Assembly (NCBI GenBank): GCA_051313645.2
Contig: JBNRSN020000003.1
Span: 517,762,001 to 517,826,000, forward strand
Origin: Centroscyllium fabricii
Lineage: Eukaryota
Direction: 5' to 3'
DNA length: 64,000 nt
The notes beneath the pieces were generated by a model. The model saw only the letters and a list, made by a program, of their open reading frames with translations. It made no database searches and was not told the DNA's origin. Made by a program: the position numbers and the translations under genes. Every line of letters begins with the position of its first letter. The stretch's first letter is position 1. Shown piece by piece: positions 7,160 through 62,956 of the stretch.

Positions 7160-7682
7160 ACGGGACAAAGACAAAGCCACGGTTCTGACTCTTGCATTGT
7201 TCCACAGAAGCTCAGCGTAAGCTCGAGGAACAGCTCATCTTCTGATTAGGCACTTTACAGCCTTCTGGACTCAATATCGAGTTCAACAATTTCAGATCAT
7301 AACCTTGGCCATTACATTTTTACTTATATTTTTTATCCATACCTTTGTTTTGGCCCTCCCCAATTTTTTCTCTCCCACATGGCAGCTGTCTCCCATTCTG
7401 CCAGCGCATTTCACACCTAATCTAGAGCCGTTTTCTGTCTCCACTAGTCCTATCACCATCTTGTCTCGTTTTAATGTCTCTTCTCATCTCTCTTGTTCTC
7501 TCCCAGCCCCCTACTGGCCTTCTAATCTGTTTCATTTCCTTGCTTCTTCAGTCTTGACAAAGGGTTTCAACCTGAAACGTTGACTTTATTTCTCTCTTCA
7601 CGGATGTTGCCTGGCCTGCTGAATTTTTCCAGCATTTTCTGTTGTTATTTAGGATTTCCAGCATCTGCAGTATTTTGCTATC
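7160..7682 (+). mobile_element. Penelope-like element 3' end / pseudo-LTR
   Basis: Degenerate RKLEEQ..FRLGTLQPSGLNIEF-type C-terminus, followed by the GATG(C/T)TGCCTGGCCTGCTGA...TTCCAGCA terminus. Confidence 0.75.
7550..7585 (+). ncRNA. Minimal type I hammerhead-like motif (U3-A8 variant)
   Basis: AGTC-TTGACAA-A-GGGT TTCA ACCT-GAAA-CG-TT-GACT; stem I AGTC/GACT. Confidence 0.55.
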
Positions 7683-9308
7683 ATTCTGACCTGCAGTCTG
7701 AATAGCAGTTGATTTCCGAATGACGACATCCAGTGTTCTTCGCAGCAATTACGCGTTGTGGCCTTAAATGGACACAACTTCACCTTAGCAACAGAACAAT
7801 ATGTTGTGCAAATATTTGTCAAAAGGTGAGAGACCAGTTAATGTTGGTATTCATAGAGATTTGGGAGTCCTTGTACACTAATCACAAAAAGTAAACACAC
7901 AGGTACAGCAAGCAATTGGGAAAGCAAATGGTAAGTTAGCCTTATTGCAAGGTGGGGGGGCAGTGGTGGAGTACACGAGTAAGGAAGTCGTGCTGCAATT
8001 ATATAGGGATTTGGTGAGACCACACCCTGCATAAAACTCTTGATAATGTAAAGCAGCATATTATCTGGCTTACTGCGAGCACCACCCACATTAAAGCAGT
8101 GAAAATGCTAAGAATTTATTTTTGGACATATCATAAAATCTTGGTAAATCTTGGTAAAGATTAACCTAAACCCAAAGACATGCAGGTTAGGTGAATTGGA
8201 GATACTAAAAATTGCCCATGAGTATGTATGTGTGTGAGATATAGTTCTTAGAGTTGGGGGTGTCGGGGGATATGGGGAGAGGGTAGGAGGGGGGTGCTGG
8301 GTTTGGATGATCAGCCATGATCTCATCAAAATGGCGGAGCAGGCTCGAAGGGCCGAATAGCCTACTCCTGCTCCTATCTTCTGTGTTTCTGTGAATTCTT
8401 TTTCCGAGGTAACTGTGACAAATCAGAAATTATTAATGTCAAAGAATGTTTTCTTATATATAAAAGCCTTAGAGACATGCATCGTGCTGAGGCCTCCTTG
8501 ATGTGCTTACTGCCAATGAAATATAGATTTACCTCCAGCTGTAATGTAGCCATAGTAACTGTTTGAAGGGACAAGATAGACTGATATGCTAATGACAAGG
8601 ATTTTAGTCAGAAGTCTTCCTGTAAATCCGCTTGCTTTGTCATGAAAATAATCAATTAAAGGTGCTTGGAAACACAGGTGAATGGAATTGTATCTAGCAT
8701 TATTAATAGGTCCAGGAAATCATAATTTTAATTTGATAACTTTGTTCACCTGCATATGACTGTCAGTCACTCTTCAGGCTTCTGAGATCACAAGTAATTG
8801 GTATAATCACAAAAATATTTTTTACTTGCTAGTTCTTCCTGTTCTAGTGTTGTATTGCAGCCCATGATGGGATGAGCATATGATGGCTCCATATATGTTT
8901 TGTGTTATGGGCACTGATGCAGGTTCAGTGTTATTCAAATGCCTCACACCTTTTTGGATTTTGTAAACTACGCAGTTGTAAGTTAAATGTTGTATTCTAG
9001 TAGAATCAACTATATTGATCTTTTGCTACTGTTTAATTTTTCCTTTTAACAAACCTGTATCATAGATAATAACCTAAGCGATTTGGTCTGACCGAGTGAT
9101 TATTCTTCTATTATCTGAAAACTAGGAGGGACTAGTGATGAAATTACACTAACAAGTAGTTAAAAAACAGCTATATATATAAAAATTCTGGAAGGACTGT
9201 ATTATTATTCAAATTTGGAGGAAAGTTCTGATTAAAAGTCCTGACATTAAATATCTTTACTTATAGAGAATCCTTTTTTATGAGCCCTGTTGCAGAGATA
9301 CTGGATAA

Positions 9309-10400: not shown

Positions 10401-10879
10401 ATATTACATAGAGATATATTTATTTCTGTAATTGGTTTGCAAGGGGAATAAATGTATACCTGCAGCGGGTAAGGAAACCATTATCTTCTAGGTACTTATC
10501 AATAAATACTTTTCCGTTTTTGAGCTGATTTTATTCCTTTCAGTGATAATATAAACAACTCTCACGCCTCTGTAACTCAGCACTTCTTGTTGTAACTGGG
10601 TAACCCCTGACCCACCAAAAGCAATCTCATTGGAGATCTGCTAACTTATATCGAAATCATCGTCCTTTGGACTTTTGTGCAGAAGCAAATCAATCTTTAA
10701 AATGAAGAGAAGGAAAGGTCATCATTTCCAATCTACAAATAAAGTTCCCTAGCAACAGAAACTACCTAATTAACTTCAGGAGACACATTAAAAAAAATGG
10801 CTAAAAAATACAAAGCCAACAATTTCCAATCTATAAACAAATGTTCCCAGCAAACAGAAAATACCTAATTGACCTCAGA

Positions 10880-11278
10880 TGGTAGCAAAATACTGCAGAT
10901 GCTGGAAATCCGAAATAACAACAGAAAACGCTGGAAAAACTCAGCAGGCCAGGCAGCATCGGTGAAGAGAAATAGAGTCGACGTTTCGGGTTCGGACCCT
11001 TTGTCAAAACTAAAGCTGGGGAATGAAACGCAAGCAGGAAGGTGGGGTGGGGGGGAAAGGAACAAAGAAGGCAGCACAAAGAGAAAAGACTTAGACGAGA
11101 TTCTGTGGACAGGAGACAGCTGTAGATTAGGTGTGAAAAACACTGGTAGAACAAGAGGTGGCTGCCACGATAGAGAAAAAGGCCAAATAAACATTGTGGA
11201 TAAAAAGAGGTAAAATATTTCTATTTCTCTCCACCGATGCTGCCTGGCCTGCTGAGTTATTCCAGCATTTTCTGTTGT
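10880..11278 (-). mobile_element. Penelope-like terminal fragment with a short inverted second terminus
   Basis: 14-bp TSD TAATTGACCTCAGA at 10866-10879 and 11279-11292; inverted terminus at about 11217-11278. Confidence 0.8.
10976..11011 (-). ncRNA. Minimal type I hammerhead-like motif (U3-A8 variant, GUC triplet)
   Basis: Minus strand AGTT-TTGACAA-A-GGGT CCGA ACCC-GAAA-CG-TC-GACT. Confidence 0.65.
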
Positions 11279-11382
11279 TAATTGACCTCAGAATTCAGTA
11301 AGTCCCCAACAACATTTGATCTCATATATTATAATTAACATTGTGGCCTAAAGGGATAGGTCCTAAATTAGAATCATATATT

Positions 11383-12355: not shown

Positions 12356-12392
12356 TCACAAGCTTTCGGAGCACTGCTCCTTCGTCAGGTGA
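12356..12392 (-). ncRNA. Minimal hammerhead ribozyme motif in a second Penelope-like family (element about 12308-12600)
   Basis: Minus strand TCAC-CTGACGA-A-GGAGC AGT GCTCC-GAAA-GC-TT-GTGA: canonical CUGANGA/GAAA core, stems I and II intact. Confidence 0.7.
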
Positions 12393-26457: not shown

Positions 26458-27258
26458 GGCCGAAAAATTGGCGCCTTAGTGCCGGGCCTTTAGCGCCGAC
26501 GTAGTGTCCAAATTAGCGCCGGGCGCTAAATTGGCATGATGGTTAGTGCTGGCGCTAAACGCTAGCGCTGCCTGACGATCAACAATCGTCGTGGCAACGC
26601 GTGTGCAACGGCCGCCACCGGCCGTTATTGGCCTTAGCACCTTTGCAGCACCACCCGCACTATTAGCGACAGCTTTTGCAAGCGCTGCAGCGACTTTGAG
26701 TGGCCGCTTCAGCGCTGCTAAGGGCCACTGTCCCTCTTCGGCCCGAGTGCGGCCAGCTGATGGGGGGAGTCGGCCTGAGCAGCCAATTGATGAGAGAGCG
26801 GGGAGGGGGTCCGGCTCTCTGATCAGTGGCGTCTCGGAGAGAGCGGGGAGGGGGTCGCCGCAACCCACCAAGACACAAATGATCAGAGAGCCGCACCCCC
26901 TCCCCGCTCTCTCCGAGACGCCACTGATCAGAGAGACGGACCCCCTCCCCGCTCTCTCCGAGACGCAACTGCTCAGACAGCACGGAGAACAGCTGCTGTT
27001 CCCCCTTTAATGCCTCATCGGCTGCAGAGGCGAAGGGGAAGCAAGCAGTTAGTCAGGGAGCGCTGCGCCCTGGAACGGCCATTAGCGCCGGGAAATTAGC
27101 CGCCTGACTCTCGTGCAAGGTGGGAATTTGCACCGAAATCTTCAGGGCCGCCGCTAGCGGCAATTTCGGACCTGTCAGTGCTAATTTAGCGACGGCGTAA
27201 AATTTTTGCACAGCGCCAAATTTAGCGCCCATTTTGTGCACTGACGAATTTTTCGGCC
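26458..27258. mobile_element. Harbinger-type MITE inserted in a Penelope terminus
   Basis: TIR GGCCGAAAAATT...AATTTTTCGGCC; ATA on both flanks; the host PLE continues at 27259. Confidence 0.8.
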
Positions 27259-28329
27259 ATAGAGTCGATGTTTCTGGTTCAGACCCTTTGTCAAGACTAA
27301 AGCCAGGAAATGAAAGAGGTAGTAAGGCCGGGGGAGCTGGGAGGGAACAGAAAACAAAAGAAGAGAGAACAAAGAGAAAAGACGTTAAGAGGTATTCAAT
27401 GCAAATTATCTGCTTGGATTCCCAAACAGTGATTCTTGCTAGAAGGTATGTGCGTGTGTATACATGTTTGGATGTTGGGTGATGATCTGGCTTGACTGTG
27501 GTGCCCTTCATCACCATTTTGCTTCACACATAAAAATGACCCCTTCGGAGAGGTACTACAGATTAGCAAGTACCTAAGGAACTGTCCTCCAGCACCACTC
27601 AATGGTTTCAGGACAAACAGGGAGAATAAGTAGACAGAAAATGAAAAAGAAACTAAAGAAAGGCTACGAGGTTCTGTACTTTCATAAACATACAAGCTTA
27701 CACTAGTTTACATCATTACATTGACCATTAAACATTAAAATGTTGCATAACAATGTAAGAAAGGTTGTAAATGCCTCCAAAACAGAGTTAATAATCACGT
27801 CTAGAACTGTGAAGGCAGTATTGTCAAAGATGACATGCAATACAAATAACAAACATGGCATTATATATGAGTTTGTTGGATTGTGTCAACCAATTTGAGA
27901 TGCAGGCTACAAATGGAAGCAGATTCTGATTAATACTGCTGAGAATTTGTTATAGTGCGAGAATCTGAAATGGCCTAGAAAATCGATGAGCATCCACTGA
28001 AATAGCACCCAGGGCCTTTTGTGACCTAGTTACTCACCAAGTTGGTAAAAGTTTATTTGGTAAGGGGGGGGCACTGACTTTCTGTAATTGTTGGCATTAT
28101 TCAACTCAGTCTAATACAGCTCTACCTCTACCGGAGCAAATTAAGGAGATCTAAAATAAGGGGTACAATTTCCTGTAGCAGTCTAATTGGGAAGTTATGC
28201 TCATTCATATCGATTTTGTGGGTCAATTTATGCTGAAATTGAATGTGCACCTAATTAGACTGCGTCAGAGAGTAAAAAATTAGCGTCATTACAACGTAAC
28301 TCTAAAATGCCCTCTGGTTTCGTGATATA

Positions 28330-43226: not shown

Positions 43227-44981
43227 TATCAGCTGCTGGCATGAATCACCTCTTCTCCTTCCTTGCTTAATCTCGAACTCTGAGGAGCAACAACCTCACC
43301 CCTGCCAACATGTAATGTTGTTTGTGTACAACTAATTAACAATTGCAGCATATTTGACAGCAACTATCAGGAAATCTAAATCATAATGACTAAACAATAT
43401 ATATAAAAATTTTGGAAGAACTTAAAAATAGGCTTCAAAAATATGATTGTATTTTCATTGCAAAAATGGCTAAAAAGATGGCCATCATTGTGACAATGGC
43501 TAAAGTGATGGCCATGCCAGGCTCATAATTAAGATATGGGCTTCTAAAATCAAAAATGCTTGAGTATGGATCTATCTGTTATTTGACATTTGCTTTTGGC
43601 AACAGTGAAGTAAATTAGGTTTTTTCCCCAAGCCATTCATCAACAGCAGACAGAGCTCGCTTTCAGAAACATGCAGTTGCCACAAATTTTAATAATGACG
43701 CTGCATTTTAGTTCCAGGAATCTGTCCTGTCTGCAGAATCCACAGAGCTGCAGTAACGTTTCTGTACCAAAGTTTTACTGCGTAATTCTACGCCTCTTTT
43801 TAAAAAAAATACCATTTTTGAACAGAAAGGAATATGCTTTGAAAGCTGCAAGAAGGATAAATAGAAGGAAATATCAGATTTCCCCACGTGCTGCTCACGG
43901 TAAGTTGGAGGATATGCTGTTTTGTAATAACAGGAACAAACTGTATACAGCTCTGGTCGCCATATTATAAAAAGGATATAGAGGCACTGGAGAGGGTGCA
44001 GAGAAGAGGGTATACCCATCAGAAAAGGATGAACAGGCTGGGTCTCTTTTCGCTTGGAAAAAGGCTGAGGGGTGACCTAATAGAGGTCTTTAAAATTATG
44101 AAAGGTTTTGATCGAGTAGATACAGGGAGAGTGTTTCCACTTGTGGGGAAGAGCAAAACTAGAGGCTATCAATATAAGATAGAATCATAGGGGGGGGAAT
44201 TTCATGCCACCGTGAGGCGGGGTTTTCGGCGGCCCGGCTGGCAAAATAGCGGACCGGCGGGTCCTGACCTCCCCCGCCGCTTTCTCATTTTCCCCTGCCC
44301 AGATTCCCCGCCCCGAAACATTCCCGCCGCCGGCCGGCGGGGATGGGTTGTCACCTCGTTAAGGGCCCTTAATGCTATTTTAAAGGCCCTCAGCCATTTT
44401 GCCCTGTTTCCCGCACTAACCCCGTCACCTTAAACCCCGCTGGGACACCACCCCCCACCCCCCGAGTGGCAACTGATCAGAGAGCCGGCCCCCGAATCTG
44501 TGGTCTTCTGTGAGGAATCATGCTGTAAACACATTCTTCCTGAATTTATCTACAGCAAGTCAGAGCCCTCTCAGCTTTCCAGTGTAACACCCCCCGATCA
44601 GGGGGTCGGGCGACCCCCCCCAGCGGCAACTGATCAGAGAGCACGGAGAACAGCTGCTGCTCTGCTTCCCCTTTAAGGCCTCATCGGCTGCAGAGGTCAC
44701 GGGGAAGCAAGCAGTGAGTGAGGGAGTGCTGCGCCCGGGAACGGCAATTAGCGGCAAGGTATTTGCCGCCTGGAAGCCGTGCACAGTGTTAGCCGTGAGC
44801 GCGCTAAATGAGCGCGCGTTCACGAGCGCGTTCACATTTTCATGAACGCTGAACGAGCGCGCTCTTTCCCAGCAGCCTGAGCGAAAATGTGAGCGTCGCT
44901 CGCTCTGGAGGGTGTGAGCGGCACTCTCGCGCTCGCGGTATGTGGAGTCTGAATCGCTGCTGCCTTCCGCGCCATCGGGAC

Positions 44982-45237
44982 GGTGAGTGCTTTGCTTTGC
45001 TGCCTTCCGCGCCGGTGAGTGCTTTGCTTTGCTGCCTTCCGCGCCGGTGAGTGCTTTGCTTTGCTGCCTTCCGCGCCGGTGAGTGCTTTGCTTTGCTGCC
45101 TTCCGCGCTGGTGAGTGCTTTGCTTTGCTGCCTTCCGCGACGGTGAGTGCTTTGCTTTGCTGCCTTCCGCGCCGGTGAGTGCTTTGCTTTGCTGCCTTCC
45201 GCGACGGTGAGTGCTTTGCTTTGCTGCCTTCCGCGCC
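44982..45237 (+). repeat. 32-bp minisatellite, 8 units
   Basis: Unit GGTGAGTGCTTTGCTTTGCTGCCTTCCGCGCC with minor variants; partial units on both sides. Confidence 0.95.
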
Positions 45238-45307
45238 ATCGGGACGGTGAGTGTCTCTCTCTCTATCTCTCTATCTAATTAATTAATAGCTTACATACCT
45301 GCCTATT

Positions 45308-62726: not shown

Positions 62727-62956
62727 AAATAACGACAGAAAACGCTGGAAAAACTCAGCAGGCCTGGCAGCATCAGTGGAGAGAGAAACAGAGTTAATGT
62801 TTCAGGTCGATGACCTTTCTTCAGCACTCTGAAGAAAGGTCATCGACCTGAAACGTTAACTCTGCTCCTCTCTCCACCGATGCTGCCTGGCCTGCTGAGT
62901 TTCTCCAGCGTTTTCTGTCGTTATTTCGGATTTCCAGCACCCGCAGTATTTTGCTA
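62727..62956. mobile_element. Inverted pair of Penelope-like termini forming a hairpin
   Basis: 98-nt arms at 62727-62824 and 62829-62926, loop CACT; hammerhead core CTGAAGA...GAAA starts at 62829. Confidence 0.85.

Follow-up and report, generated by a model that had tools for sequence, protein, structure and literature searches.

The hammerhead motif at positions 10976-11011 of the window (the whole 64-kb stretch of Centroscyllium fabricii DNA that was analysed) has U3 and A8 in its core in place of the canonical C3 and G8. The question raised by this locus is whether such a pair arose by decay of individual copies after their insertion, or was already present in the elements from which the copies were made. 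In the latter case, the history of the pair may tell something about the role of self-cutting in the spread of these elements. The coordinates of the features of the locus are presented in Table 1.

Table 1. Features of the focal insertion and of the two other U3-A8 copies in the window
Feature	Position	Strand	Basis	Remarks
Minimal type I hammerhead motif, focal copy	10976..11011	-	sequence, descriptor scan	U3-A8 core, GUC triplet
5'-truncated fragment of a Penelope-like element (PLE), pseudo-LTR	10880..11216	-	blastn	contains the focal motif and a tail of about 100 nt (ORF start)
ATG matching the ORF start of the element	10957..10959	-	sequence	20 nt past the predicted cut
Inverted tail fragment	11220..11278	+		without hammerhead; 5' end of the focal insertion
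Target-site duplication, left copy	10866..10879			14 bp
Target-site duplication, right copy	11279..11292			14 bp
PLE 3' fragment	7189..7684	+		broken end of endonuclease frame (stop 7300-7302), pseudo-LTR, motif, tail
Second U3-A8 hammerhead motif	7550..7585	+	sequence, descriptor scan, tree	GUU triplet
Third U3-A8 motif, decayed	27263..27298	-	sequence	
801-bp element inserted in the third copy	26458..27258			directly past stem I'; short terminal inverted repeats, 3-bp target duplication

In the focal copy, stem I is formed by AGUU/GACU (4 bp, with U.G as the closing pair), and the core reads U3 U G A C7 A8 A9, followed by a single additional A. Stem II is formed by GGGU/ACCC (4 bp) with a CCGA loop, after which come GAAA and the palindrome ACGU. 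The predicted cut site is the 10980/10979 junction. The GUC triplet and the palindromic ACGU replacing helix III, both described in the first-pass annotation, can be read directly from the sequence. The copy at 7550 is intact and has the same anatomy, except for G.U at 10.1-11.1 and its triplet. The earlier statement that three copies read alike is correct for the degenerate string, which all of them match, but the copy at 27263 is broken: G10.1 lies opposite A11.1, which is a mismatch in stem II, ACAU stands at the position of the palindrome and the triplet is AUC. The features of minimal PLE hammerheads (YUGANRA core, extra base, GAAA, NUH triplet, stems I and II) are thus all found in the first two copies and are partly broken in the third, while stem III is absent and the dimer-capable palindrome ACGU is present in two of the three. 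The PLE tail of the third copy picks up again at 26457-26390, beyond the 801-bp insertion.

A descriptor scan of the window recovered two of the three U3-A8 copies, together with a canonical hammerhead at 12388(-) that is unrelated to them. The latter, spanning 12360-12388(-), is a minimal C3-G8 hammerhead with other stems, a GCU palindrome and a CUU triplet; it represents a different family and probably belongs to another PLE. An Rfam scan of the window at E<=1 returned no hammerhead, whether of the U3-A8 or of the canonical C3-G8 kind; its only results were hairpin matches to miRNA models, under their thresholds. These mis-scores are due to an inverted hammerhead pair at 62727-62926, where two canonical C3-G8 hammerheads of the second lineage described below stand back to back in a 98-nt inverted repeat. 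The window is also rich in other repeats, among them the SINE-like families D2, D5 and D11, the putative LINE 3' ends D3, D7 and D9, and an array of 32-bp tandem repeats at 44918-45300.

The focal insertion as a whole occupies 10880-11278, and its main fragment is 84.6% identical over 358 nt (blastn) to the near-complete element L125. It is a truncated solo insertion and probably inert; its nearest partner on the same strand is the broken copy, at a distance of 16 kb. The copies in the window are dispersed fragments of a coding PLE and not the tandem non-coding repeats, with a hammerhead in each, by which non-LTR retrozymes are defined in the available part of a preprint (10.64898/2026.07.22.740005). 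Because the three window copies descend from one lineage, they provide no independent evidence of covariation.

The association with PLEs proposed in the first-pass annotation is borne out, since U3-A8 motifs lie downstream of reverse transcriptase (RT) and endonuclease frames, and in four near-complete elements (L120, L123, L125 and L128) a motif stands on either side of the ORF. The motif lies within the pseudo-LTR, past the end of the endonuclease frame and ahead of the following ATG. Longer U3-A8 copies elsewhere (L071, L072) run into frames with RT motifs upstream of the hammerhead. The RVT_1 match on a 237-residue piece has an E value of 1.8e-05, short of the Pfam cut-off, and the GIY-YIG match on the endonuclease piece of L016 is weak (E 0.26). 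A full-length relative, P0029, has both RVT_1 and GIY-YIG domains and aligns at 44-51% along the four near-complete elements. Among named sequences, the best relatives of the RT belong to rays and sharks, namely Mobula (72%), Rhincodon (71%), Hypanus (71%) and Chiloscyllium (68%), which points to a cartilaginous fish as the likely host.

The structural hallmarks of PLEs are likewise present, with pseudo-LTRs in partial-tandem or inverted arrangement, 5' truncation and a tail. Direct repeats of 116-451 bp are found at both ends of L128, L123 and L125, and 30 insertions are inverted pairs with the tails outward, most of them with a candidate target duplication. The organization is that of an endonuclease-containing PLE, with a single ORF, RT followed by GIY-YIG, upstream of the motif. 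In eight of the nine motifs examined an ATG lies 20-22 nt beyond the predicted cut, and the same start ATG opens a frame of 596 codons in L123 and of 546 codons in L126. The unbroken 845-codon frame of L113, a C3-G8 copy of the same family, has a linker CX4CX2C at residue 711. A linker of the form CX2-5CxxC between RT and endonuclease marks the Neptune and Nematis clades (PMC8557442), and the assignment made by this linker applies to both clades in common. From these sequence features, the motif is a minimal hammerhead in the pseudo-LTR of a Neptune-type PLE (RT plus GIY-YIG), inherited with its U3-A8 core by thousands of mostly decayed copies.

The four combinations of bases at positions 3 and 8 were counted in the 7.2-Gb genome with a pattern of 25 places, in which the stems and loop length are fixed and position 7 is C. 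Exact matches of this lineage, called lineage I, number 6,856 for U3-A8, 947 for C3-G8, 238 for C3-A8 and 168 for U3-G8. The reversed U3-A8 pattern gave 0 matches in the genome against 6,856, and therefore the pattern is not due to chance. In the pair count that the first-pass annotation had proposed, the two paired classes thus far outnumber the two mixed ones. A relaxed pattern with positions 3 and 8 left open has 38,259 matches, and the first 100 listed comprise 45 C-G, 39 U-A, 7 C-A, 5 U-G and 4 other combinations, as tallied by eye within the first 44 Mb of contig C1. The earlier prediction that searches based on CUGANGA would miss the variant is confirmed by this U-A share; on the same listed matches, about 40% of the PLE hammerheads of this genome would escape a search by consensus alone.

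These counts bear on the possibility that U3-A8 is merely the decay product of canonical hammerheads, created after insertion by CpG loss at C7-G8 and a C-to-T change at position 3. It is true that C7-G8 is a CpG and that decay of G8 to A is seen: among the 100 copies listed for each class, about 54 with C3-A8 and 13 with U3-G8 share their loop with the C3-G8 family (both by eye). The derived rates in lineage I are roughly 14% for CpG loss and about 2% for other transitions. However, the U3-A8 class exceeds not only both single changes but also its supposed parent, and a second lineage has A7 and hence no CpG at this place. We consider an origin by decay so improbable that it can be set aside. 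The mixed classes of lineage I fit decay and individual copies decay neutrally; together with the counts, this means that U3-A8 was already present in the source elements. The earlier claim that the variant was fixed under selection can thus be kept in an indirect form, through the history of the source elements, but not for individual copies.

The second lineage was noticed through the near-complete elements. Lineage II is a separate U3-A8 group with another stem II and A at position 7 (4,329 matches), and exact U3-A8 matches to the patterns of the two lineages amount to at least 11,185. Trees were built with positions 3, 7 and 8 masked; they are unrooted and based on the copies with sufficient upstream sequence (82 of 189 in one tree, 93 of 234 in the other), the bootstrap of the 93-row tree being not fully settled. 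In these trees, C3-G8 copies form a backbone separating the two U3-A8 groups, and lineage I is nested within a C3-G8 family with support of 100/99. A single U3-A8 clade (40 rows against 28) was rejected by the AU test with p 2e-44; this test used 68 of the 93 rows, after removal of the rows with mixed states, of a long branch and of a solitary U3-A8 row. It would follow from the trees that U3-A8 was gained twice, provided that the root falls among the C3-G8 copies. C3-G8 is the state of most PLE hammerheads in the portion consulted of the supplement of PMC4209133. The proposal that one PLE subfamily had fixed the variant therefore needs to be modified: fixation is evident from counts and tree, but in two lineages and not in one.

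Within lineage I, the 7550 copy is basal on the tree. The focal copy and the third window copy were too short for the trees; the closest relative of the focal copy is L042 (87.7%), in a late branch of lineage I. Several lineage II U3-A8 copies (L145, L198, L201, L208, L212, L219, L143) share a different upstream sequence on a long branch and are possibly a chimeric or non-autonomous subfamily. Watson-Crick covariation of positions 3 and 8 is strong in both lineages, with odds ratios of 162 and 157 that tally related copies and represent two independent events.

The distribution of mixed pairs in lineage II is quite different from that expected of decay. With matched 35-place patterns, the counts are 7,192 for C3-G8, 2,386 for U3-A8, 1,064 for U3-G8 and 103 for C3-A8. 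In this lineage C3-to-U and G8-to-A take place in an identical trinucleotide, read on opposite strands, and the same is true of the two reverse changes. Decay alone therefore predicts equal mixed classes, while the ratio seen is 10:1. Per 100 listed copies (by eye), a linked upstream marker was seen in 1 of the C-G, 32 of the U-G and 90 of the U-A class, and C17 (the GUC triplet) in 14, 65 and 78, respectively; a script count on 30 loci gave the same gradient. The tenfold excess and the intermediate markers indicate that U3-G8 was present in templates that were copied. Two of the 30 inverted insertions have U3-G8 on both arms (L176, L289). It is thus likely, judging from the markers, that U3-G8 itself was copied in lineage II and served as a stepping stone between C3-G8 and U3-A8. 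The order C-G, U-G, U-A within lineage II has tree support of only about 80-89, and the U3-G8 rows are unclustered on the tree (15 changes for 15 rows).

In lineage I copies with U at position 7 (4,613 matches), U3-G8 is also more frequent than C3-A8, at 16 versus 5 per 100 listed (by eye, p 0.03). These U3-G8 copies cluster in a late sub-branch, which reads as reversion. It is important to note that the very small p-values count copies, while the underlying history consists of two fixations of U3-A8 and two amplifications of U3-G8, with two or three independent events. Near-identical U3-G8 and C3-A8 matches are clustered at 51-56 Mb of contig C811, probably by segmental or tandem amplification, and slightly inflate the mixed classes.

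The excess of U3-G8 might instead derive from U3-A8 sources, either by later reversion or because the RNA underwent site-selective A-to-I editing prior to being reverse transcribed. The late sub-branch of lineage I agrees with such an origin, as does the finding that the other arm is U3-A8 in five of the seven inverted pairs having a U3-G8 arm (loci chosen for U3-G8). Moreover, L123 and L128 each have U3-A8 in one pseudo-LTR and U3-G8 in the other within a single element, where mixed dimers are possible. However, most U3-G8 copies of lineage II cannot come from its main U3-A8 sources, since the upstream marker is found in only 32 of 100 listed U3-G8 copies against 90 of 100 listed U3-A8 copies. 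In addition, the adjacent A7 reads G in just 1 of 100 listed. We regard reversion or editing as an unlikely source of the excess, and retain the reading of U3-G8 as a copied state. Across all inverted pairs the arms agree at positions 3 and 8 in 23 of 30 and the subfamily is usually shared, which speaks against arms drawn from different subfamilies. One inverted insertion, L036, has C3-A8 on both arms, and a mismatched template may occasionally have been copied.

The possible mechanism can be outlined as follows. Two motifs would pair through the palindrome ACGU, which would supply the missing stem III, and each core would cut the site of its partner, probably with the aid of the protein encoded by the element. 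Cutting at the predicted site would release an RNA whose 5' leader is about 20 nt long. The source elements would have needed a pairing-competent position 3-8. In at least one lineage, the core would accordingly have gone from C-G to U-A by way of a U.G wobble that was tolerated. We hold it likely, with good confidence, that the motif of the source elements cut the RNA as a dimer, probably with protein assistance, about 20 nt before the start codon, and that the pairing-competent 3-8 position was under selection. The published minimal PLE hammerheads lack stem III and cut weakly as dimers, according to the part of PMC4209133 consulted. The geometry of a dimer is possible for this motif. In folding calculations on the bare 36-mer, the two-copy hammerhead fold has an energy of -9.9 kcal/mol versus -23.5 kcal/mol for the minimum-energy cofold. 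An unfavoured dimer fold of this kind would fit a need for help and gives no support to the mechanism. No tertiary contact between stems I and II is evident. The idea that U3 produces a special inhibitory fold was rejected, because canonical C3-G8 copies also mis-pair the core in their minimum-energy fold, and so was a dependence of U3-A8 on the GUC triplet, because 10 of 20 folded U3-U7-A8 copies have GUU. In contig runs from other species, positions 3 and 8 were barely covered in three of four and were not among the differences listed.

It is useful to compare this system with those already described. Natural U3-A8 variants, which the first-pass annotation mentioned, have indeed been published for PLE hammerheads, with a dedicated descriptor and about 1,300 hits in the Cercyon PLEs of S. 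mansoni (Cervera and De la Pena 2014, PMC4209133); the accessible part of its supplement gives a U3-G8 core for one PLE of Saccoglossus. As far as that source could be compared, the motifs described here are like its PLE hammerheads in being minimal and of type I, in their location in a pseudo-LTR, and in having a 4-bp stem I, an extra base between 9 and 10.1 and a palindromic 15.2-16.2. They are alike also in the many sequence families per genome and in occurring both solo and in opposite-strand pairs. However, the present element is of Neptune type and from a cartilaginous fish, while the vertebrate rows examined in the published alignment are all C3 and include no shark or ray. The set presented here also differs from the part seen of the published one in its number of exact U3-A8 matches, its two origins and its countable wobble class.

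Covariation of C3-G8 to U3-A8 occurs naturally in other hammerheads, and covarying cores are reported to be active in vitro (Perreault et al. 2011, PMC3088659, as far as consulted). The U3-A8 examples seen there are complete three-stem ribozymes, while the motif described here is without a stem III of its own. A further comparison is with PAc, a Poseidon element of the anole (Frangieh et al. 2024, PMC11167929). In the sections of that paper used here, the hammerhead cut only in the presence of the PLE protein; a single change at position 3 or 8 abolished cutting, and the double swap partly restored it. The two systems share the location of the hammerhead at the junction of pseudo-LTR and ORF and a tail formed by the ORF start, and the 3-8 pair, required there for cleavage, is kept here by covariation. 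They differ in that PAc, with C3-G8, is cut 26 nt downstream of the start codon, while the cut predicted here falls about 20 nt upstream.

The same anole work raises the question of whether cleavage is needed at all, since, in the part available, hammerhead mutations left in vitro insertion unchanged and the cut site was not seen as the end of any read. If cleavage were dispensable, then U3, A8 and U.G could have been carried along by source elements that were successful, and it would be an accident of history that the bases pair as they do. The small number of independent events (two or three) is compatible with this, as is the inverted pair with C3-A8 on both arms, and a good core in a dimer could perhaps shelter a poor partner. 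However, the identical double change was fixed twice here and also in the PLEs of S. mansoni, and both amplified mixed states are U.G and never C-A (1,064 versus 103 in lineage II, and 16 versus 5 per 100 listed in lineage I, p 0.03). Such an accident appears quite improbable to us. Repeated compensatory change suggests instead that the 3-8 pair was under selection in the source elements, a suggestion based on two or three historical events. The rise of U3-A8 to more than ten thousand copies in two lineages, in one of them likely by a U-G wobble step, also suggests that the predicted self-cutting matters to the spread of the element.

The U3-A8 variant itself is already published, and what would be new, as judged from the sequences, is the second lineage and the copied U3-G8 class. 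The value of these observations lies in the scale and history of the core pair and not in the variant as such. Our literature search found no paper on a wobble path from C3-G8 to U3-A8, and older work may already report activity of U3.G8 or the presence of U3-A8 in sharks. In our judgement the chances are evenly balanced that C3-G8 changed to U3-A8 twice in source elements, at least once through a copied U3.G8 and never through an amplified C3-A8, and that cutting matters in vivo. If this is true, the genome would show how the catalytic core of a ribozyme crossed a fitness valley in nature. It would also provide genomic evidence that PLEs need hammerhead cleavage to spread in vivo, which the anole biochemistry could not show, and a natural allelic series of C-G, U.G and U-A in one backbone for direct testing. 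Repeated compensatory change in source elements, together with a countable wobble class, is an in vivo argument for the importance of the 3-8 pair.

Some additional features of the hammerhead region were observed. At 7520-7552(+) and 11009-11040(-) of the window, the 5' strand of stem I overlaps with a pyrimidine tract that terminates in YAG and resembles a splice acceptor; this overlap is similar to the intron end in Penelope of D. virilis. No GT..AG joint was found in four contig runs over L125:2150-2870, although contigs cannot exclude splicing.

The hammerhead also appears to be a target for other elements. A G-rich sequence starts no more than 14 nt past GAAAC in 27 of 285 distinct hammerhead copies, one of which (L063) looks unrelated. 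Two offsets predominate, with 7 starts at +3, the predicted cut site itself, and 15 at +11. Where the far end is visible, these are mostly elements of 670-910 bp that have terminal inverted repeats and are flanked by a target duplication of 3 bp; examples are L006, L017, L025, L035, L068, L069, L079, L258, L277 and the 801-bp element of the window. From its sequence, the inserted element looks like a sequence-specific DNA transposon or MITE with a hot spot in the 3' strand of the hammerhead, and the 3-bp target duplication presumably points to a Harbinger-like identity. A loose target motif GA-N-W-Y occurs at 11 of 35 other ends, some of which are the far ends of the same insertions. Among the lineage II U3-A8 copies L192-L221, homology is lost 2-4 nt before position 3 in 10 of 30 (for example, L194, L202, L210, L211 and L213). 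Five of these 10 copies adjoin the same foreign sequence end, which suggests another element inserting at the T/A run around the core.
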